A DNA stretch of 64,000 nucleotides from Bispira polyomma (Eukaryota), in the NCBI GenBank assembly GCA_965649765.1, contig OZ287756.1, positions 57,970,001 through 58,034,000 on the forward strand, given 5' to 3'. A program made the position numbers and the translations under genes. Each line of letters starts with the position of its first letter. Position 1 is the stretch's first letter. The notes below the pieces were generated by a model that saw only the letters and a list, made by a program, of their open reading frames with translations, had not been told where the DNA came from and did no database searches. Below, in pieces: positions 2,713 to 50,438 of this stretch.

Positions 2713-3479
2713 TTACAAGCCTAACTGTTGTTTTTTGTAGGTGGGGTTTTGGTTGTATATTGACATACATTCACATTTGATTGGCAGGATCCCCTTGTAT
2801 TCTTTGTAGGTGGGGATAACATCTAACATAGTTTGATGTGTGGTTTGTCAGTTCCCAAAATGATATTTGCTTATTGGTGGATAATAATCGATCGATTAAT
2901 CAATCAATTGGTACCTTTTTCATAAAATTTATATCTTGACTAAGTGCATGAATAAAGTTGAAGTAACATTCTATTTTACACATAAACATCAAAATTCTCA
3001 GTTTAATTTTGAGTAAATACTACCTAAGATGAATTATAATCCGAGAAATTTTAAAAATGTTAATATTTTACCGTTACACAGATTGTAAATTTCACCCCAA
3101 TTTTTTTTTTGAAAAGTTGCCTGTTTTCACATGTCTGATGCATTAACCGGCTAGTGATTGATAAATTGTCATAGGACTGTCGATCTATTAATCAATTCTT
3201 CGAATAATCAGTGTGGCTTTAGTAGTTAGGTTTTAACATTGCTTTCAACATGTCTTGTGTCAACACATGACAGGCACTTAAAACTTGTGGACAAAATCAG
3301 TACAGGGTAGGTGATCAAAGGTTTCTGTTCTGCAAACCACTGTTTATTCAGCAAGTCTAATCTGCCAAATTGCCGCCAGGGTCGAGATTTAAACCCACGA
3401 CTGCAGAGGGGGTAGGCTGGTGTCTTACCACTACAAGGTGGGGCCCCAATATCATTTTATAATACCTACTAAAACAGTA

Positions 3480-3932
3480 ATAGTTTGGGTGGAGCTTTTT
3501 ATGTGAATTAACATCTTTTAGTTTATTCTCTGATTGACCAGACAATCTGGTCTGTTTTATGGGTGGAGCCTGTTACATAAATTAACATTTAGACACCTTT
3601 TATTGACAGGACTGCTTGGCCTGTTTTATAGGTGGGGCTTAGGTTGTACATTTTCACATACTATATCTATTTGATTGACAGGACCACTTGATGTGCTTTA
3701 TGGGCAGAGCCTGTTATGTAAATTAAAATTGATTCACTTTTGATTGATAAAACTACATGCCAGTGCTCTGTTTTGTGGGCGGGCCTTAAGTTGTACATTT
3801 ACCCATGCTTTCTCTATTTGATTAACAGGACCACCTGGTGTGTTTTATGGGTGGAGCCTTAGGTTGTTCATTTACCTATGCTTTCTCTGTTTGATTGACA
3901 GGACCACCTGGTGTGTTTTATGGGCGGAGCCT
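3480..3932 (+). repeat. Degenerate ~70-73-bp tandem repeat of a splice acceptor plus exon start (about 6 copies; last is the real exon)
   Basis: tgattgacag|gaccacctggtgtgttttatggg(t/c)ggagcc-like units near 3540, 3609, 3681, 3750, 3828 and 3901. Confidence 0.88.
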
Positions 3933-4096
3933 TGGCTCTGGGTGCACACATGGGTTTGCCCCAAGACTACCAGACAATCGGAGCAGAGCTGACTGAGACC
4001 TGCTGGAACATGTACAAACGTATGCCGACTGGACTGAGTCCAGAGATTGTCTACTTCAACACCCTGCCTACCTCCAGGGATGACATCATTGTCAAG
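3902..4096 (+). CDS. MAN1B1: ER alpha-1,2-mannosidase internal exon
   Basis: ttgacag| acceptor, AAG|gtgggt donor, 195 nt, phase 0/0. DHLVCFMGGALALG...TCWNMYKRMPTGLSPEIVYFN...DIIVK contains the GH47 DHLxCF and TGLxPEI motifs. Confidence 0.95.
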
Positions 4097-4309
4097 GTGG
4101 GTTTATTGTTACATGCTATAATATCAGTATTAAGTGCATACATAACTTGGGCTTCTGGTGTCTTCCCTTTAGCTCAACTGGTAAACGTCCGCCTTGGGAG
4201 CAGGAGATTGAATTACAGTCGAGGTGTAACTTTTCTTCTTTCTAATAATATAATACTGTAATATACAGTATGCATCTTCTATCTATCTGTTTTCCAGTCC
4301 ACACAGTAC

Positions 4310-5930
4310 TAGCCAGTGTACCCAGTAATTAGTATCTTGTATCTATATTCCAGCCGGCAGACATTCATATATACTGGTTCTAGCCTGTGTACCCAGTGAT
4401 CAGTATCTTGTATCTGTTTTCCAGCCAGCAGACACTCACATATACTAGTTCTAGCCAGTGTACCCAGTGATTAGTATCTTGTATCTATATTCCAGCCGGC
4501 AGACATTCACATATACTAGTTCTAGCCATTGTACCCAGTGATAAGTATCTTGTATCTGTTTTCCAGCCAGCAGACACTCACATATACTAGTTCTAGCCAG
4601 TGTACCCAGTGATCAGTATGTTGTATCTGTTTTCCAGCCGACAAACACTCACATATACTAGTTCTAGCCAGTAAACCCAGTGATCAGTATCTTGTATCTG
4701 TTTTCCAGCCAGCAGACACTCACATATACTCGTTTTAGCCAGTAAACCCAGTGATCAGTATCTTGTATTTGTTTTCCAGCCAGCAGACACTCATATATAC
4801 TAGTTCCAAGCAGTATACCCAGTGATTAGTATCTTGTATCTATATTCCAGCCGGCAGACATTCACATGTACTAGTTCTAGCCATTGTACCCAGTGATAAG
4901 TATCTTGTATCTGTTTTCCAGCCAGCAGACACTCACATATACTAGTTCTAGCCAGTGTACCCAGTGATTAGTATCTTGTATCTATATTCCAGCCGGCAGA
5001 CATTTACATATACTAGTTCTAGCCATTGTACCCAGTGATAAGTATCTTGTATCTGTTTTCCAGCCAGCAGACACTCACATATACTAGTTCTAGCCAGTGT
5101 ACCCAGTGATCAGTATGTTGTATCTGTTTTCCAGCCGACAAACACTCACATATACTAGTTCTAGCCAGTAAACCCAGTGATCAGTATCTTGTATCTATAT
5201 TCCAGCCGACAAACACTCACATATACTAGTTCTAGCCAGTAAACCCAGTGATCAGTATCTTGTATTTGTTTTCCAGCCAGCAGACACTCATATATACTAG
5301 TTCCAAGCAGTATACCCAGTGATCAGAATCTTGTATCTGTTTTCCAGCCAGCAGACACTCACATACACTAGTTCCAAGCAGTATACCCAGTGATCAGTAT
5401 CTTGTATCTGTTTCCAGCCAACAAACACTTACATATACTAGTTCTAGCCAGTAAACCCAGTGATCAGTATCTTGTATTTGTTTTCCAGTCAGCAGACACT
5501 CATATATACTAGTTCCAAGCAGTATACCCAGTGATCAGTATCTTGTATCTGTTTTCCATCCAGCAGACACTCACATATACTAGTTCTAGCCAGTGTACCC
5601 AGTGATTAGTATCTTGTATTTGTTTTCCAGCCAGCAGACACTCATATATACTAGTTCTAAGCAGTATACCCAGTGATCAGTATCTTGTATCTGTTTTCCA
5701 GCCAGCAGACACTCACATATACTAGTTCTATCCATTGTAACCAGTGATCAGAATCTTGTATCTGTTGTCCTGCCAACAGACACTCATATATACTAGTTCT
5801 AAGCAGTAAACCCAGTGATCAGTATCTTGTATCTGTTTTCCAGCCAGCAAACACTCACATATACTAGTTTTAGCCAGTGTACCCAATGATCAGTATGTTG
5901 TATCTGTTTTCCAGCCAGCAGACACTCACA
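4310..5930 (+). repeat. 71-bp tandem repeat (~23 copies) of a splice acceptor plus the first 16 nt of the exon
   Basis: Unit tacccagtgatcagtatcttgtatctgttttccag|ccagcagacactcacatatactagttctagccagtg; 'ccag' recurs at 4350, 4421, 4492 ... 5911. Confidence 0.97.
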
Positions 5931-18869: not shown

Positions 18870-19868
18870 ATTTTTATAGATATACTTAGTGTTATTAGTG
18901 TTAGTCAAACATTTCACTCCATATTCTATGGGATATACTTACTGCTATTCAAACATATTATTACTGTTATTCAAACATCTCACTCTTATAGATATACTTA
19001 GTGTTATTCAAACATCTCACTCTTATAGATATACTTAGTGTTATTCAAACATCTCACTCTTGTAGATATACTTAGTGTTATTCAAACATCTTACTCCATA
19101 TTCTTATAGATATACCTATTGTTATTTAAACACCCCACTCCATATTCTTATAGATATACTTATTGTTATTCAAACATCTCACTCCATATTCTTATAGATA
19201 TACTAAGTGTTATTCAAACATCTCACTCCATATTCTTATAGATATACTTAGTGTTATTTAAACATCCCACTCCATATTCTTATAGATATACTTAGTGTTA
19301 TTCAAACATCTCACGCCATATTCTTATAGATATACTAAGTGTTATTCAAACATCTCACCCATATTCTTATAGATATACTAAGTGTTATTCAAACATCTTA
19401 CTCCATATTCTTGTGGATATACTTATTGTTATTTAAACATCCCATTTCATATTCTTGTGGATATAGTTAGTGTTATTTAAACATCCCATTTCATTTCCTT
19501 GTGGATATACTTAGTGTTATTCAAACAGCTCACTCCATATTCTTATAGATATACTTAGTATTATTCAAACATCTCACTCCATATTCTTATAGATATACTA
19601 AGTGTTATTCAAACATCTCACCCATATTCTTATAGATATACTAAATGTTATTCAAACATCTTACTCCATATTCTTGTGGATATACTTATTGTTATTTAAA
19701 CATCCCATTTCATATTCTTGTGGATATAGTTAGTGTTATTTAAACATCCCATTTCATTTCCTTGTGGATATACTTAGTGTTATTCAAACAGCTCACTCCA
19801 TATTCTTATAGATATACTTAGTATTATTCAAACATCTCACTCCATATTCTTATAGATATACTTAGTGT
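18870..19868. repeat. Minisatellite, ~44-bp unit, ~23 copies
   Basis: atattcttatagatatacttagtgttattcaaacatctcactcc repeated, with an internal block duplication of the 'gtggata' variants. Confidence 0.93.
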
Positions 19869-21353: not shown

Positions 21354-22919
21354 CTACTGCTGCCGCCGAAATAAGTAATGCATGAGCATCAGCCCCAGCT
21401 TGAAGGTCATCGAAGAAATGGCAAAGCCCATGATGGCCGCAGGGAACCAGAGCACAAGTACATTCTCAGCGTGGTCAAAGACTTTCATCAGCAGCTTGTT
21501 GGGACCTTGTGGGGTATACTCAGCGGCCTCAAAACCCGCCCTGACCAGATTAATGCCGCCAGCCATGAGTAGCGCCGCAACAGAGGTGCTGCCCGCGATG
21601 TTTCCTCGGGTGTCCTTGTACGGTAGCACGTGGACGTGGTGTAAGAGCATGATAAAACAGACCAGCATCATGCAGAGCATGCGGATGAGAGTGTCATTGA
21701 CAAAGGTAAAGAGCAGGATAAGGATAAGCCGCCGGAAAACGAGCACACCCGCACCGCACAGGGGCCCAAAGAGTCTGCTCTCCGAGTCCTTGAACGGGCC
21801 CTGTAGTATAGACATGACTGCCTGTGCCTCGTCAGAGGGTGTAAAGTTTGTCTGAGGCTTGTGTCCCCGTAACTTGAGCCGGATGATGCACCAGTGCAGC
21901 AGAAAGGGCAAGGGCAGAAGGCAGGCCATGAAGAACTGGGGCAGGGAGATGATGCCGTCCTTGAGGAGACCAGGCCCGATCAACAGCACCAGGCAGAAGG
22001 GTACGATACAGCTGACCGTGTAGATCATGACGCCATACTGCCACATGGTGTAGCAGGAGATGGTGCCCTGGATGAAAAGCACGTTCTCCTCACCGACAGG
22101 CACGCAGTTGAGCAGGGTGAAGCTAGTGGTGGCTAGCTTCTGATATGTGAACAGCAGGGACAGTACGAAACCCGTGGCCAGTTTGCTGGAGAATCTCTTC
22201 TTCTTTGTCAGTGATGTTTCTTCCTCACCAGCAGCATCATCCTCTGGGCACGCTGCGACCATCTGCCCATGCTTTCCGACATTTTTCATGTGGGTTGCGA
22301 TCCCATTTTTGCCATTTCTCTCTTTGGCATTCTCTTCTATCTCCGGGTGGCTATAGTAGGCGAGCTTGTGGCCGACGCCATTTACATTGCGCCTGGTCTG
22401 GTGCTGGCACCTGATGCCATTGATACACTGGTATGCCAGATAAATGAGGCCAAAGAGCAGCAGTACGTAGGGCACAAGTATCACTTGGATGAGGATTTTG
22501 TGTGTTGGGGTGAGTCCGGCTATAAAGCACACCTTGTCCATGAACTGAAAGATCTCGACACGAAACTTAAACAGGCCACTGAGAATCTCTTTGAACATTT
22601 CTCTGGTTTTGTTGTCTTCCTCCGCGAAGACAGTTTTAATATGCAGCAGCTGTGCGTCTTGAAAGTAATAAAAGAGAATGATCAGAAAGCTAGCTCCAGT
22701 GTCCACAACTGGCTCTTCAGCATTGTCATCCTCTAAACCTGTGTCTAGCTTGTTATTAATGTTATTGTTTTCTATACCATCGTCTACACTGGTCTCTGCC
22801 ACTTCGGAGTCCAGCCTCAAGTTCTCCACGTCATCTGCTTCCTTGAGTCCATACCTGTTTCTGTAGTGAGGCAGAGGATCAGAGGCATGATGGGTAATGT
22901 TGTTCATTTGATACTCCAT
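21354..22919 (-). CDS. Membrane protein last exon (multi-TM domain)
   Basis: cttccag|ATG acceptor, 521 codons to TAG, with about 8-9 hydrophobic segments (FLIILFYYFQ, ILVPYVLLLFGLIYL, FVLSLLFTYQ, RRLILILLF, LPYKDTRGN etc.). Confidence 0.92.
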   Translation of the reverse strand: MEYQMNNITHHASDPLPHYRNRYGLKEADDVENLRLDSEVAETSVDDGIENNNINNKLDTGLEDDNAEEPVVDTGASFLIILFYYFQDAQLLHIKTVFAEEDNKTREMFKEILSGLFKFRVEIFQFMDKVCFIAGLTPTHKILIQVILVPYVLLLFGLIYLAYQCINGIRCQHQTRRNVNGVGHKLAYYSHPEIEENAKERNGKNGIATHMKNVGKHGQMVAACPEDDAAGEEETSLTKKKRFSSKLATGFVLSLLFTYQKLATTSFTLLNCVPVGEENVLFIQGTISCYTMWQYGVMIYTVSCIVPFCLVLLIGPGLLKDGIISLPQFFMACLLPLPFLLHWCIIRLKLRGHKPQTNFTPSDEAQAVMSILQGPFKDSESRLFGPLCGAGVLVFRRLILILLFTFVNDTLIRMLCMMLVCFIMLLHHVHVLPYKDTRGNIAGSTSVAALLMAGGINLVRAGFEAAEYTPQGPNKLLMKVFDHAENVLVLWFPAAIMGFAISSMTFKLGLMLMHYLFRRQQ

Positions 22920-23117
22920 CTGGAAGATATATAATGGTAAGACACAACACATTAGACGTAAGATTTTATTTATTTTTGTAGTGACATGTGTAACAATAAC
23001 AGTATTTTTATATTACAACATGTGTAACTTAAAACATTTACTCAGCCCCAACTGGGCCTGTAAGTCTAAGTTAAGTTTGTGTGAGAAGTGTTGATATGAT
23101 GAGAGGTTTATTTGTAC

Positions 23118-23423
23118 CTGCTTTGACCTCCATGGGAAGTGGATCTCCTTGATATTGACGGGGTTGAAGAACATCAAGTCTCTCACATCTTTCTGGTAGA
23201 GCAGGAAGAGGGCATAGAGGAATCCCGAGCCCACCGCCAGCGGCCACAGCCAGGTGGCGTCACAGTTGTCGTCTTTGACGCACTGTGAGGAGAACAGGGC
23301 CTCGGAGTAGCCCGTGTCACAACTACCACACAGTCTGCCTGTACGGTGGAGTGCACATGTACTGAAGCTTTCACACGTCTTGTCTGAACAACAGTAGCCT
23401 TTGGGGCAGTGCTGGAAACGAAC
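23118..23423 (-). CDS. Membrane protein exon (Cys-rich stalk and first TM helix)
   Basis: ttacag|GTT...CAG|gtacaa, 306 nt. CPKGYCC...CALHRTGRLCGSCDTGYSE...C...WLWPLAVGSGFLYALFLLY. Confidence 0.9.
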
Positions 23424-24293
23424 CTGTAATATAAGGAATAAGGTGAGACTATTATTATTATGCATTTGTAATGCGCTTTAACTGATGCTAGGCATCTTCT
23501 GAAGTGCAACAACATAATCAACTAACCAATCATGTAGCCCATAGGCATAGCTAGGTCGTAAGGAAGGATATGTTGCTCTACAGTAGGAAATTAATAGGTA
23601 TAAGGGGTATAAGTTGGAGGAGATGGGTTTTTCCTTTTTTTCTAAATAGTTTCTAATGATTTAAGCTCAGCTGGGAGACTGTTTAGTAGCATGGGGACTG
23701 CAACGGACAAAAAAAATTAGATCCAGCTTTCTTGGTTGGTTAAATAAAAACCGGAGTGCTCCTGGAGCTCTTATGAGTACATGTATTTATGTATTTGGCT
23801 GGGGTGTAAATTAGAAAGTTGAACTCAAGGGACGACATCAGATGAAAATCTACACTTTTTAAAGCATTTCATTTTTATTTAGCAAATTCCTCGTTCCCAC
23901 TATTGGTTCGGAATGTCCACGAGGGGACTCTCAAAAGTCGCACCAAAACAAACAACATATATTTTCTCTGTATAATGTGATAAAATACAAGACGTAAAAC
24001 TTTTTTTGTGAGAATTTGTTACTTCTCCACTAGTGTGGCGAGCAATTCTCCGGGGAGAAATTTGCCAGTGAGTAACTTATAGAGTGAGCAACAGGCTATA
24101 ACCCCATTGTTTGTGGCCGGCAATCAATGGTGAAATTGGAACAACAACTGGATTTTCACATTTAACAATCATATAGCACAGAATTGTGAGAACGATTCTT
24201 GCAGATATATGTGTACTCACAACAGAAGACAGAAACGAATATAATTAATGCTGCTATATTTTTTCTAGATAAACATTTTTTATTCTTCTCCTA

Positions 24294-24325
<32 letters not shown>

Positions 24326-26346
24326 AAAAAAAAAAAAAAAAGGTTTACATGTGTTTGAAGTAATCATGACGTATCACACGTGACAATGAACATAAATTGT
24401 AAGGGCCTAAAAAAAAATTGTACACATAAGTTTGATGGCAATTTTTAAAAACAAATACACCACTACTATTTAAAGTGCTATGGAAGCAAATAGAAATCAA
24501 ACTATGTTGTTGATTATTGTAAATCACAAAACCCTTACTAATTTGACTTTCCATTCAATAGTGTAACCCCCAAAAATAAATAATTATAAGACAGCCCAGC
24601 CCACAGAAAGCAAGTGCTGGTTTTTTCCCTTTACTCTACAGCATTTTTCAGAAGAGCCAGAATTCAATTTCCCCTGTTGGATCCCTCTTCCGCCTTACAG
24701 AGGCTGGTGTTTTGTCGGGAGGGGGATGCTGGAAGTGATGGGTGGTGAGGGGAGATGGGGGTTTCTTATGTGCTGAGGAGACAATTACCAGCATATGTCT
24801 ACACAGCTTTTTGTCATAATGACACATTCTCACTCTTACACAAAGGCCTAGAAGGACATATATATCACAGTGGGAAGCACATCAAGTACAAAGTGGGGCC
24901 CATGTCTTAACAAAGGATTCTAACTTAAACTCAATACGTATAATGAGATATTTCAATTTTGTAATGGTAAGATAACCTACACATGTGACCATTCATTTTG
25001 ATAGGAGGAACACAAATATTCAGTCAGAGTTAAGATTATATTTCTTTCTTGTTTGTATACGGAGGTAACAGGTGCAGCTAGTACATATTTTGAGATTACT
25101 TTTTGATTTAAGTTTGGGAACCTTTGATACAATATGGGCCTTTGGGTTTGTCTTTTGTTTGTGTTAAATCACAGTGGTACTTTTTTGACTGGGGAAAAGT
25201 CTCCTCTTACACCCCTCCTCCTTTCACCTTCTCTTTCTCTCTCCCTAAACTTGTAAAGATAAAACACACACAAGAATTTTGTCTTTTTTTAAAAAGTGAC
25301 AGAGTGTGAGAAATACTAATCTGACACCCCTTCCTCAGTGTTGGCTAGGTCGATAGCTTCCAACCAAATCCATGAAGACCTTACATTTTTTTCCAACATA
25401 GCAGCAATATGAGGTAACGTCCGATTATATTAAGCCCACACCCCCGGGTACATTGCTTCCCATGCAATCCATGCAGGCTTTCACCTGAAAAAAAAAATCA
25501 TGGGAAAAACTCCCAGGGAGTGTTGGTATTGAGAGCCTAATAAAGATAGACAATCTGCTCTAGACGAAGGCAAGACCAAGTAGCAGTAGTTGCAGGGGCA
25601 CCATCTCCACACTGGGGCCAACTTGAAACGACATCTAAGTGCGATTTCAACACCATGCAGTGACTTTAATCTTAAAACTGTCAATACACTGTGAATCATT
25701 GACACTAACATGTTAGCTGTACTGGAGCAAGTAATGCTGGTACCAATTATGTTTGTTTTTAAAAAAAAATTCAAAATGATAAAAATATGGCTTAAAGTTG
25801 TCCTTTTTGAAGCAAATATCATCCGAGTAAGATTGAAATTAAGCAGAAACAGTATATCCCAGTTAGAAGGAAATAGTTTCTAATATTGTAGCAAAACGTG
25901 TTTGCGAAACCCCGAAATTCATTCTTAAAATTTTGAGTTTGAGTTTGTGACGTCACATTGGTACGCCGCCCAACTGCATTCTGACCATTATAACACATTG
26001 CAATGCTATATATCACAAAACAAACGTGGCATATTTAAAATGAGTTATAAAGACAAATTAGATGTAAGACTATAAAACAATATTTCTACAACAGAACTAT
26101 TCAGCATAACTCAAGTAATTTATTATTAATTAATATATTGACCAAGATGACTGAATCTAGAGCATTCTCTACTGCTGCCCCTATGTTATGGAACAGTCTC
26201 CCCATTGAATTTAGTTCACTTCAAACACTTTCTGACTTTGGAAAAAAAGGCCTAAAACCCTTCAAACTTCCCCACATTAGTCCACTCCTTGTACACCCCC
26301 ACATCCTTCCTTATGGCTTCGGCTCTGTTGTTTTGAATTTCGCTAA

Positions 26347-26500
26347 AGGTCCTCAGTGGCCGAGTAGTTAGCAAGTTTGGCATCTAATCACAGGCTGTCA
26401 CCTCTGTGTGGGTTCGCCTCCCACAAGTGACAAATGCTGTGGGACTGTCCCAATATGACCCTGGCTGTTGAACAGGACGTAAAACCCTAAACTTTGACTT
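26347..26500 (+). mobile_element. Short tRNA-derived SINE, adjacent to a LINE tail fragment (26150-26260)
   Basis: gtggccgagtag A box, gggttcgcctccc B box, actttg-repeat tail, tttgaatttc on both flanks. Neighbouring SRAFSTAAPMLWNSLP. Confidence 0.7.
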
Positions 26501-27389
26501 TGAATTTCTCCATTGATTAACCGATTCAGTTGTTGCGTTTTGGAAGATAACACGCATCAATAAGGCGTGTTAAAAATCCATAATACAATACAATATGCGA
26601 TCGAGTGTCAAAATAGAATAGGGTGGCATTTCAAAACTGCCCCCTTCGTGTTGACGCTTGACAAGAGTGAGTGTTTCTGTGTGTGCTGCATTCTGGGATA
26701 GCCCTGTTTGTCACCATCACAAACTCAAGCAAAGTCTTGTATATATTTTTTGCACTGTCTGTCTTTTTATTTCTTTCTCTTTAGTAAATCCAGTTATCTT
26801 GACAATGATCTACATTAAGTGATACTGGGGTATTTTGTCTCTTTTTTTCATCAAAACCATTTCTGCCTTTTCTCTGTTGCAGAACAGCAACACTATTTGG
26901 ACCAATTTTAAAGCATGAAATAAGAATATTGATAATAATCTGCTGATGTGACATATATTCATATTTAGTAAACCAGCTAATATCAGATTCCAGAGTAAAC
27001 TACCCTCTCATCTTTTCAATCTGGCTTAATATAATAACCCTCCCCATAGTAAAACAATGATATTATAAACACTCCCATAATAATTGTTCCTCAATACAAT
27101 GATTTTCGTCACTTTGTCAATGAAGTACTGACATTGATTAGACGTGTTAATTTTTTTTAATCATATCATATTGTAAGTAGTAATTTTAAAGCATGGAATA
27201 AGAATCTTAATAATAATTTGCTGATTTGATATATTCTCATATTTAGTCAATATCATAAATTTATTTGTATATCAGAAAATAGTAGTTCTACTGTACTACA
27301 TAAAAAAGGGCTAAGTCTAGACATTATCCTAAGTGTAGAACAAACATATACTAGATCTAAGACAATGTTTGTTAATACCAGCCCAGGCT

Positions 27390-27812
27390 GTTATACAATG
27401 ACATACCTGGTTATAGTAGATGTATCCCCAGAGGTTTAGCCACTTCTGTAACAGAATAACCTACCTGGTTATAGTAGATGTATCCCCAGAGGTTTAGCCA
27501 CTTCTGTAACAGAAAGACATCCCTGGTTATGGTAGATATATCCCCAGAAGTTCTGTGATATAATGACCTACCTGGTTATGGTAGATGTACCCCCAGAGGT
27601 TCTGTGATATAATGACCTACCTGGTTATGGTAGATGTATCCCCAGAAGTTCTGTGACAGAATGACTTCCTTGGTTATGGTAGATGTATCCCCAGAAGTTC
27701 TGTGATATAATGACCTACCTGGTTATGGTAGATGTATCCCCAGAAGTTCTGTGATAGAATGACCTACCTGTTTATGGTAGATGTATCCCCAGAAGTTGGC
27801 CACCGCTGTGAT
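27390..27812 (-). repeat. 49/58-bp tandem repeat (8 copies) of an exon end plus splice donor
   Basis: Minus strand: AACTTCTGGGGATACATCTACCATAACCAG|gtaggtcattatatcacag; unit ends at 27768 (real), 27719, 27670, 27621, 27572, 27523, 27465, 27407. Confidence 0.95.
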
Positions 27813-28826
27813 GCCCTGTTGACACCTGCCTCCGTAGGGACACTGCTGGCAGTCGATGTCCTGGTACTGGTAAGAGCCTGTGTAGGCGGTCTGTGGTTCT
27901 TTGCCGTTAATCAGTAAGGTATAGTAGGCGAAAGAGGAGTATGTCAAGCTGTAGTTCAGATAGCCATAGTCCAGACTGTACTTGTGCCTGGGGCAGGATT
28001 CACAGAAGTAGGACAGCTGGTCTAGTTTATAGGAGCGCCGCAGGCCTATAGGGGTCACACCATAGGCTGACGTGTTGGTCACTCGCAATCTGTAGCCCAC
28101 TGGACATTGGATGGCAATATCGCTGACCTCTATTGACCAGTGGTCGCCACTGTGTCTGACCAGGGTCATGTGGTTCATGGCAGTCAGTATCATTAGGCTG
28201 GCACTGCGTACAGACACCAGTCCGTTTGAGTAGATGAGGTCTCCCTGCAAGGCGTGCCTCTCTACGGGGCTGTTCTCAAAGTACACATTGTCCACCTGCA
28301 TCGTACTCTCCCTGTCCACAAACACCGCCCCACCTAGCAATCTGGCTGTGTTGTTCACAAACTCGCAGTCCTTTAGGCTCAGGTTGCCCCTCTGGATCCG
28401 GATGCCCCCGCCTTTGCCAACGAAGGAGATCAGTCCTTTGCAGCAGTCTGACTGGATCCGGACTTCGTCTCCATTGATCTGGAAGCTGTCCTCGTAGTTG
28501 TAAATCTTATTCATGCGGTAAGAGCCGGCGTCATTCTGTCTGAAGGAGCAGTTGGTGACGTAGGACGGAGTGGACGGGTTCGTTAAGTACAAGATGGCCG
28601 CTCCAGCATGCATGGCGATGTTCTCCGCAAAGCTGCAGTTCTCAACCATGGTTGTGTTAAATGGGCCGATAAAAGTCACTCCCCGCTCATTGTTCCTGAA
28701 GATACAGTTCTCTATGGAGACTACACCGGCACCCTCAGGGCCTAGTTCTGGGTGAGGGTTAACTGCTCTGACCATCAGTGCCGCAAAGTAGAGGTTCATG
28801 ATGCTTTGGATGGGGTCATTGTACAC
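27768..28826 (-). CDS. Membrane protein exon (FxxN/GGA beta-helix repeats and start of Cys-rich region)
   Basis: ccacag|GTG...CAG|gtaggt, 1059 nt, phase 0/0. NCIFRNN, NCSFAENIAMHAGAAI, DCEFVNNTARLLGGAVF, CPVGY, CESCP, CQQCPYGGRC, NFWG. Confidence 0.9.
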
Positions 28827-29981: not shown

Positions 29982-30179
29982 CTGTTTCTCAAAGACTGAG
30001 TTCCTGACTAGCACCCTACTGGGAAGCAGAGAGTTTCTGATGGTAAGGTAGATCTCCCCATGACTACTCTGCATGTTGGGCACATTGGAGAAGTGACAGT
30101 CACTTATCTCAAAGTCCACATTGGAGGCTGAGGTGATGGCCAGCTTAGTGTGCAGGAAGGTGGAGTCTTGGAGCAGAAC
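29982..30179 (-). CDS. Membrane protein exon (beta-helix-like ectodomain)
   Basis: cccag|GTT...CAG|gtatgg, 198 nt, phase 0/0. VLLQDSTF...ISDCHFSN...VRNSVFEKQ. Confidence 0.85.
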
Positions 30180-31249: not shown

Positions 31250-31797
31250 CTGTAAATACTGGCCCATCATGTTAATCACACCAGACGGTTGACAGTTGAC
31301 TGTACAATTTTCGTCCATACTGCCCCTCCACTCACTGTTGATAAACCTCAGGCCCACCATGGGTATGGTCGGCGGTGACATCCACTTTGAGTCCTCCATC
31401 ACAACCTTGTTCAGCATGACCGTAACGTTGCCCGTCGGGTTCTCCAAGGTCATCAGTACCCGACTCAGGTGTAGGTTCTCCAGTTCATACTCGTAGCTCG
31501 AGTTCTGTTCAGCCCACGAGATGCTCAACATCAGCAGCCGATTACCATTCGAACCGCACCCTACCAACGGGAGGCCGTTGTGACCCACTAACTTGATGGA
31601 GATGTTCAATACCAATGGCTCGCAGAGCCAGTCCGGATTGTCCCGCGATCTCTTAGCATTGATCCAGACCGTGTCCCCTTCGGACACCTGACCCAGGATG
31701 TGGGTGAGTGTTTGACAAGGTGTGTCCTCATCATGACCGCAGTGATCCCGATCTTCTCCGTAAACAGCAACATAGTGATGGCCAGAGCCCAACACAC
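31250..31797 (-). CDS. Large multi-pass membrane protein, most upstream identified exon (N-terminal cap of a beta-helix-like ectodomain)
   Basis: tttgcag| acceptor (phase 1), CAG|gtaagg donor. HYVAVYGEDRDHCGHDEDTPCQTL is the YV..G.D...CG....PC.T motif typical of the start of pectin-lyase-like beta-helix domains. GC-rich relative to flanks. Confidence 0.85.
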
Positions 31798-32862
31798 CTG
31801 CAAATTATAGACAAATAATCTGTCAATTGTGGCCAAATGGGGAACATCATCCCAATACAAGCACAAAAATCATTCAGTCAGGTGGCCGGATCCCAACCTA
31901 CCTGCAAATTATATATATAGAAAAAATAATCTTTCAATTGTGGCCATATATGGAAAACACCATCACTTGGAACACGTGTACAAAAAAGCTCTAATTTTTC
32001 TTTAAAATCGACCCTGATAAGTGGAAATCATGCATAAGTAGAGCTTTTTCTCCTAAATCCCTTGAGATTAGACTTAAAGGGATTTAACGGAACCGCAGTG
32101 ATCCCGATCTTCTCCATAAATAGCTACACAGTGCTGGCCAGAGCCCCACCCACCTTCAAAATTATATTTTTGCTTATTTTTATTGATGACACAGTCAATG
32201 CCATTTTACAATAAAACTGGTACCCTTGCAGGAGAGGTAGTCCAGTTATGTTAGCGCATTTACACAAAGGAACCCCCCTAACACAATCCCACAAAGAAAT
32301 AGCTTAATTGATTTTAATCAACATGACATTGAATTGTATCCCATTTTTAGTATACACAAAAGGAGGGCAGAGTAGCAAAAAAAAAACGAGAATAAGTAAA
32401 TGCACCCGCCATTATATATAAAGAAATGATCTGTCAATTGTGGCCCAAATATGGCAAACACCATACAAATCTGCCCTGTTAAGTGGAAATTGTGCAGAAG
32501 TATAGGTATTTCTCCTAAAAAGCCTAAATCTTTGTTTCAACTTTGAGCACCAAGAACACTACAGCTGAAAACAGCCAATGTGTTGTATACAGTGAATTTT
32601 ATCAAAGTTTTCGTCTAATTAGAATCGTGGACACAAGCCATGTCATGTTAGAACGTATTTTAGCTGGGATTTATAAAAACAAAAAACACGAAATAGGTGG
32701 TTTCTGTGTAGAAAAAATGCACTCATGATACTTGGCAGTGCATATTCTTATAGTAAAATGAAATACAATCCATGTACTAGTCTATAAATGTGTATTTCAT
32801 TAGCTAATATATCAAGGGTTTGTTTAAAGGCAGTTCACAGACTTTAACTCACATAACAACCA

Positions 32863-50159: not shown

Positions 50160-50438
50160 GCTGTACTGCATAGACCAAACCTTAATGCCTCAGTCCGACT
50201 GAAGTCATGTACTTCATAGGCCAAACCTTAATGCCCCAGTCCCACTGGATTCACGTACTTTATAGACTAACCTTAATGCCCCTGTCCGACTTAAGTCACA
50301 TACTTCATAAGCCAAACCTTAATGCCCCGGTCCAACTGGATTCACGTACTTTATAGACCAAACCTTAATGCCCTGGTCTGACTTAACTCATGTACTTCAT
50401 AGGTTAAACCTTAATGCCCCGGTCCCACTGGAGTCATG
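50160..50438. repeat. Minisatellite, ~46-bp unit, 6 copies
   Basis: catagaccaaaccttaatgccccagtcc.actg.a.tca.gtactt repeated. Confidence 0.88.

Follow-up and report, generated by a model that had tools for sequence, protein, structure and literature searches.

A coding exon of this annelid gene ends at a donor site and is followed, on the minus strand, by seven in-frame copies of its own end, and the question that the locus raises is whether any of these copies is ever an exon. The original prediction took them for micro-exon cassettes that could be combined into inserts in the extracellular Cys-rich stalk of the encoded protein, and for a snapshot of exon and intron birth by tandem duplication. 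Our analysis of the window (the whole 64,000-nt stretch of DNA), together with exons sampled from the same genome, leads us to regard the array as a mirage that is probably silent: the spliceosome would use the first, authentic donor, and the copies would be removed with the intron and remain untranslated.

Anatomy and possible origin of the array

The array follows the exon end at 27768, and the last 30-45 nt of exon 27768..28826 are the source of its repeat unit. Every copy is in frame and free of stops, and stands behind a 19-nt spacer that starts with donor sequence and ends in CAG:

27805..27812, minus strand: exonic ATCACAGC, from which the CAG of the spacers may stem
27749..27767, minus strand: authentic donor CAG/GTAGGT (donor score 11.4) and first 19-nt spacer
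27719..27748, minus strand: copy 1, 30 nt, GT kept at 27718, acceptor score 3.4, 19 nt from the real donor
27670..27699, minus strand: copy 2, 30 nt, donor lost at 27669
27621..27650, minus strand: copy 3, 30 nt, GT kept at 27620, acceptor score 2.5
27572..27601, minus strand: copy 4, 30 nt, GT kept at 27571, acceptor score 3.3
27523..27552, minus strand: copy 5, 30 nt, donor lost at 27522
27465..27503, minus strand: copy 6, 39 nt, GT kept at 27464, acceptor score 8.2, nearest upstream donor dead
27407..27445, minus strand: copy 7, 39 nt, GT kept at 27406 (GTATGT, 10.9), acceptor score 6.8
27387..27406, minus strand: last donor copy and intronic ATAACAGC, at the passage from the array to unique intron sequence

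This anatomy had been described exactly in the original prediction, both in its copies (30 nt long in five cases and 39 nt in two, spacers of 19 nt ending in cag, phase 0, no stop) and in its donors, with GT kept in five of seven copies (27718, 27620, 27571, 27464, 27406) and lost in two. Five of the repeat units are 49 nt long and two are 58 nt long. TRF reports a period of 49 with a score of 482 (5.6 copies, 92%) and a period of 58 with a score of 263 (3.7 copies, 81%), far beyond chance. Copies 1-4 agree with the exon-end unit in 44-47 of its 49 positions and copies 5-7 in 42-43, and the two 58-nt units have private changes in common. In a search of its own genome that skips very common words the array matches one place, and it reads as a locus-specific unit built from local sequence, with neighbouring units homogenised. 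The authentic donor, fixed by homology to intronless paralogs, sits in the terminal unit of the repeat. Judged by its letters, the array can be assigned to the exon-intron boundary minisatellites, or 'mirages', all of whose sequence-level defining features it shows.

Contigs from three DNA runs each contain 7 pieces of the array and its flanks; their letters all agree and one piece spans the boundary between a 58-nt and a 49-nt unit, in runs that belong to one study, perhaps the source of the assembly itself, and whose contigs leave 27580-27675 uncovered, a gap from which nothing follows. In run X3 the single-copy array pieces have a depth of 130-170 against 65-83 in the flanks, and in X1 and X2 they are about equal to the flanks. 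Depth is not copy number, and a copy-number difference between samples is one possible reading. Just beyond the array, at 27287-27368, lies a short high-copy dispersed repeat with a summed contig depth in the thousands.

The origin of the array may be legible in two octamers, one exonic (27812-27805) and one intronic (27394-27387), which are identical at 7 of 8 positions. In the single-copy state they would have stood 57 nt apart, and a microhomology-mediated duplication of those 57 nt (45 exonic and 12 intronic) would explain both the repeat unit and the CAG of the spacer. The original prediction had traced this cag to exonic sequence, and the exonic octamer supports this derivation. Alternatively, the intronic octamer may be the remnant of a lost unit. 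The 58-nt unit would have arisen by an indel of +1, and the 49-nt unit by the loss of 9 nt, or of 8 nt from the founder; the units would then have been multiplied and homogenised through slippage or unequal exchange. The proximal copies resemble the exon most. In both derived units AG..GT is in frame, and the presumed 38-nt founder stretch is out of frame; the chance expectation is about 1 in 9.

Host gene, splice sites and possible products

The gene model around the array comprises five coding exons, with the host intron as follows:

31250..31797, minus strand: first coding exon found; no signal-peptide exon was located
29982..30179, minus strand: second coding exon found
27768..28826, minus strand: coding exon of 353 codons, with the beta-helix end and Cys-rich stalk
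23424..27767, minus strand: phase-0 host intron of 4344 nt, which three paralogs in this genome lack
23118..23423, minus strand: next coding exon, with a Cys-rich DUF7630-like stretch and the first membrane helix, acceptor score 12.0
21354..22919, minus strand: last coding exon, with a hydrophobic multi-pass region and the stop

Joined, the five exons form an open frame of 1224 residues with a right-handed beta-helix (PF13229, E 6e-7), a Cys-rich stalk resembling DUF7630 (E 7e-4, short of the curated cut-off) and a C-terminal part that is hydrophobic and multi-pass. The named longer homologs (five of 87) are all annelid (Capitella, Paralvinella, Dimorphilus), and the architecture points to an annelid cell-surface receptor or adhesion protein. 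The gene holds other repeats as well: a partial acceptor copy at 31901, 104 nt upstream of the first coding exon; a degenerate copy of about 70 nt of the start of that exon near 32150-32085 (minus strand); and, at 22945-23065 in the 198-nt host intron, a dispersed repeat of about 100 nt with 23 other matches at 71-89% identity.

The intact donor copies score 10.9-11.4, as high as the real donor. If the exon is extended to any later donor, the frame meets a stop after ...HLP, 14 codons into the intron (codon 367 in a two-exon test). As acceptors, the 30-nt copies score 2.5-3.4, which is under all 125 called acceptors (at least 4.4) and near the 75th percentile of intronic YAG (3.1, n=1975), on a matrix that was trained on our own calls in this genome with a cut-off of 4 and so has a clipped low acceptor tail; real acceptors with low scores do exist (one host acceptor at 4.5, one curated acceptor at 2.7). 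The 39-nt copies have acceptors of 8.2 and 6.8 (29th and 15th percentiles) and donors of 11.4 and 10.9, all within the normal range. The weak pyrimidine tracts noted in the original prediction are thus a property of the 30-nt copies, those of the 39-nt copies being ordinary, and copy 6 is the best cassette candidate of the array. A branch-point-like TAAC, made by one A-to-C change found in all copies and absent from the real exon, lies at -24 in six of the seven pseudo-acceptors. TGC occurs within 30 nt of none of them (0/7), so that the UGC of SRRM3/4-type microexons is missing at this distance. At 30-39 nt the copies also exceed the usual microexon definition of 3-27 nt. Recursive AG/GT splicing at the copied donors was set aside, as by sequence no pyrimidine tract precedes them.

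Geometry limits the possible products further. In animals the smallest introns usually measure 50-90 bp, and the earlier judgement that introns of 19 nt are too short holds outside a few parasitic lineages; the 19-nt spacers between neighbouring cassettes are therefore too short to splice. Five of the seven copies are bounded by AG..GT in frame and four can be reached as cassettes; copy 1 cannot, because it begins 19 nt after the real donor. Enumeration gives at most 8 splice routes and 5 peptides, with inserts of +30, +39 or +69 nt only, and 4 routes remain if introns are held to a floor of 123 nt (no smaller gap occurs among the 55 measured between sampled exons). The idea that non-adjacent cassettes could be joined survives for these four copies, but fails for copy 1 and for a +60 product, which is impossible.

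An insert, if made, would probably be tolerated by the protein. The direct splice from 27768 to 23423 gives a W-to-C span of 14 residues, which is shared by 56 of 72 aligned sequences (68 of the 87 homologs, of at least 1000 residues and without P0087, plus the host and three paralogs); the span is 15 residues in 12 others, 16 in two and 23-24 in two. In a model of a paralog stalk (mean pLDDT 85), strands 138-143 and 146-151 form a hairpin with a two-residue turn, and the junction maps one residue into the second strand. Two of the 72, P0047 from Capitella and P0049, carry 10 and 9 extra residues at this hairpin. Because of the position at the turn and these two homologs, an insert of about 10 residues would probably fold, in keeping with the inserts that the original prediction proposed for the stalk. 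A fold search with the paralog stalk model gave no match at E<=0.001, and weak furin-like and TNFR/Eph Cys-rich rows only.

The intron itself may be specific to this lineage. Three paralogs (L005, L007, L009), on three separate branches, have open frames of 1173-1228 codons across the intron site, which suggests, with the introns of the gene taken together, that the four host introns are lineage-specific gains. All four internal introns (after 31249, 29981, 27767 and 23117) are in phase 0 after CAG, three of them with exonic GT following; among the 138 sampled donors, 30 have CAG before them. Several close homologs seem to be single-ORF predictions made on genomic DNA. A shared mobile-element origin of the four introns was rejected, there being no mutual blastn hit, and the ends of the 198-nt intron are unmatched elsewhere in the genome, where its internal repeat of about 100 nt alone finds matches.

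Boundary repeats elsewhere in the genome and the fate of the copies

How far the cassette-like look of the array is exceptional depends on how often exon boundaries are repeated in this genome. We sampled exons of SNF transporters and CCT chaperonins, where 163 of 167 matches were entered (four were overlapping or intronless), and 149 exons remained after 3 rows without DNA and 11 of more than 400 nt had been dropped. Of 125 called acceptors 16, and of 138 donors 6, have a junction 20-mer that recurs within 1 kb of the exon's own intron. The same 20-mers are found in the flanks of other exons at 0 of 1832 acceptors and 0 of 2031 donors, and on the exon-ward side in 2 and 1 cases. Against a background of intronic repeat-end 20-mers (19/500 in the acceptor control, 14/552 in the donor control), there is an excess of acceptors (p=3.5e-4) but none of donors (p=0.26); the acceptor rate is also above the donor rate (p=0.015). 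Since the donor rate equals the intronic repeat-end background, no donor-specific selection is needed. Under a looser control that accepts any copy further out, and that includes positions inside the mirages themselves, the background rises to 40/500 and 27/552 and the acceptor excess narrows to 12.8% vs 8%. A coarse TRF edge test on the 149 exons found 19 acceptor-type and 6 donor-type cases, against 2-8 and 3-7 at six shifted positions, with no donor excess. The resulting rough annelid mirage rate, about 1 in 8 acceptors and 1 in 23 donors, rests on two gene families, on matrix-called splice sites and on seven acceptor cases at one homologous SNF site. It is relevant to the question of how a splice site is selected when identical decoys are present, and is a warning for gene annotators.

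At that SNF site, near profile position 79, the homologous acceptor is repeated in seven paralogs with unit lengths that are all different, from 43 to 126 nt (C1:25150503, C1:25326837, C1:81554089, C1:84769038, C3:72403098, C4:30924447 and C5:29423843). It is possibly a repeat hot spot, spotted after the fact, and the acceptor excess therefore rests partly on one site class. The acceptor mirages at C3:72403098 and C1:84769038 contain good AG..GT pairs in frame (12 and 21 nt) and look as much like cassettes as the donor array does. One CCT exon, C5:12590113-12590343 (L046), has mirages at both ends, with an acceptor unit of 85 nt x 2.9 and a donor unit of 58 nt x 6.9. In the paralog at L007, an array of 70 nt x 7.5 with an acceptor-like unit (3199-3717) ends about 100 nt before the acceptor of the long exon.

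The window has further repeats of its own. A GH47 mannosidase gene on the plus strand carries an acceptor mirage of 71 nt x 23 at 4305-5930 with the exon start at 5915, where AG is kept in 18 of 20 matched copies, and, at 3540-3933, four upstream acceptor copies about 70 nt apart before an exon start at 3902. Other minisatellites lie at 52106-55745 (34 nt x 107), 19058-19868 (44 nt x 18), 504-895 (29 nt x 14), 50162-50439 (46 nt x 6) and 58949-59286 (105 nt x 3); the flanks and short frames of these five showed no exon edge.

Among 28 hand-curated junctions (20 acceptors, 8 donors), 26 have copies at the 20-mer level. AG or GT is kept in 96 of 104 copies of these arrays. The partner site is at least as strong as the weakest one in the donor array in 6 of the 26, and both sites are in the normal range in 3. 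Because 20 of the 26 also hold an in-frame, stop-free AG..GT stretch, the cassette look appears to be largely automatic, as expected when coding sequence is copied up to a phase-0 donor. The donor array is one of many in the genome, in the upper tail of cassette-likeness and not unique. The single locus is ordinary by itself, and its value lies in this genome context.

We therefore consider a silent mirage by far the most probable reading. Use of the first donor is proposed by analogy with intron 7 of F7 and the amphioxus mirages, and rare products of later donors would probably be lost to nonsense-mediated decay. Several observations pull the other way: the sites of the 39-nt copies are in the normal range and matched by only 3 of the 26 comparison arrays, TAAC stands at -24 in six of seven copies, both derived units are in frame, two homologs have 9 or 10 more residues at the hairpin, and the acceptor matrix is clipped at its low tail. 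In addition, human 6-16 and CBS splice at two more pseudo-donors (PMC1557585), and first-donor scanning was demonstrated in mammalian cells, while the host here is an annelid.

The same observations make it conceivable, though unlikely, that a distal 39-nt copy (most probably 27503-27465) leaks into a minor fraction of transcripts, where it would lengthen the stalk hairpin by 13 residues in an unregulated and unselected way. Its site scores and TAAC, the dead donor just upstream of copy 6, the 264-322 nt that separate the 39-nt copies from the real donor, and a junction by a two-residue turn (in the paralog model) where homologs carry 9 or 10 extra residues are all consistent with this. The identical strong donors that surround the copies at distances of 49-58 nt should, however, hinder exon definition; the amphioxus and F7 precedents are silent; and 3 of the 26 other arrays look as good.

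Rather less probable still is a mirage that is turning into exons, in which the 39-nt copies at the distal end, singly or together with a 30-nt copy, would be spliced in a tissue-dependent manner to give hairpin variants of +10, +13 or +23 residues in the receptor-like protein. Two indels and one point change would then have supplied the in-frame AG..GT bounds and the branch-point-like motif. If true, the exon-recruitment model proposed for amphioxus globins would have a living example here, and splicing of a 39-nt copy would let the locus test directly whether boundary repeats give birth to exons.

We give little credence to a selected combinatorial array of micro-exons by which the extracellular stalk would be diversified. 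In its favour are the frame kept by all seven copies, the GT kept by five of them and a tolerant insert site, but the 5 peptides from at most 8 routes (4 with the 123-nt floor) are nearly identical, and copies that match the exon-end unit at 42-47 of 49 positions offer no diversification. Two donors are lost, the array is unique in the genome, the intron is absent from three paralogs, and UGC, a motif that is usual and not required, is missing. With AG..GT present in 20 of 26 arrays and first-donor use in the close precedents, the combinatorial insert set of the original prediction is not supported.

That the array records intron birth by tandem duplication of a CAG/GT proto-splice site is scarcely credible: the intron seems lineage-specific and its junction reads CAG/GT, but the model predicts intron ends that copy the opposite flanking exons and by eye neither is seen, so that the intron part of the birth proposed originally is not supported; TRF finds no such array in the gene's three other introns, which show no mutual similarity; and the array holds intron-start sequence and so postdates the donor.

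Comparison with known systems

The silent mirage that we favour has its closest counterparts in amphioxus, where mirages are known in Adh3, the globins BflGb6 and BflGb9, troponin C and PGBD5 (PMC3087553; PMC3902484). They are tandem duplications of either boundary, often keep AG or GT and are length-polymorphic (PMC3087553); they leave splicing undisturbed by RT-PCR, and exon recruitment from them is drawn as a hypothetical model (PMC3087553; PMC3902484). Like them, the worm repeats consist of minisatellite-like boundary copies with the authentic site in the terminal position, AG or GT survives in many copies though not in every one, the unit falls within 10-160 bp, neighbours are homogenised, and both 5' and 3' boundaries are affected. 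The worm array differs in its annelid host and in that each unit has both AG and GT in frame; moreover, splicing silence and length polymorphism in amphioxus are experimental, whereas the worm array is read from genomic DNA. We found no report of mirages in annelids or of a genome-wide mirage rate in the literature searched, whose scope takes in few subscription journals. In earthworm metallothionein genes intronic repeats are reported, with none described as spanning a splice site in the text available (PMC12783039).

SRRM3/4-type microexons usually have UGC between branch point and AG, although this is not strictly required (bioRxiv 10.1101/2024.09.17.613571). The worm copies resemble them in being short and frame-preserving, with a strong donor and a weak 3' context; they differ in having no UGC, long pyrimidine tract or conservation, and in the identical donor 19 nt upstream.

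In human segmental duplications, internal tandem repeats remodel exon-intron structure and can give alternative transcripts (PMC2812944). These share with the worm array a boundary minisatellite with potential for alternative splicing, but they make new introns with transcript support, whereas the worm intron predates its array.

Human VNTRs that span a donor are known from F7 IVS7 (37 bp, 5-9 copies), 6-16, CBS IVS13, lamin B2 and PDGF (PMC1557585). In F7 only the most upstream donor is used, and identical downstream donors work only when the upstream ones are mutated; 6-16 and CBS also make use of two additional pseudo-donors (PMC1557585). As in F7, the first unit of the worm array spans the boundary and the donor is reiterated as identical pseudo-sites in a similar number of copies. 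The F7 unit contains 4 exonic bases, whereas the worm unit contains 30-45, including a CAG able to pose as an acceptor; and whereas 6-16 and CBS use extra donors, any extra donor in the worm array would lead to a stop. Such boundary repeats are known from lancelets and humans, and the worm array is, by its sequence features, best regarded as a further case of this known structure.
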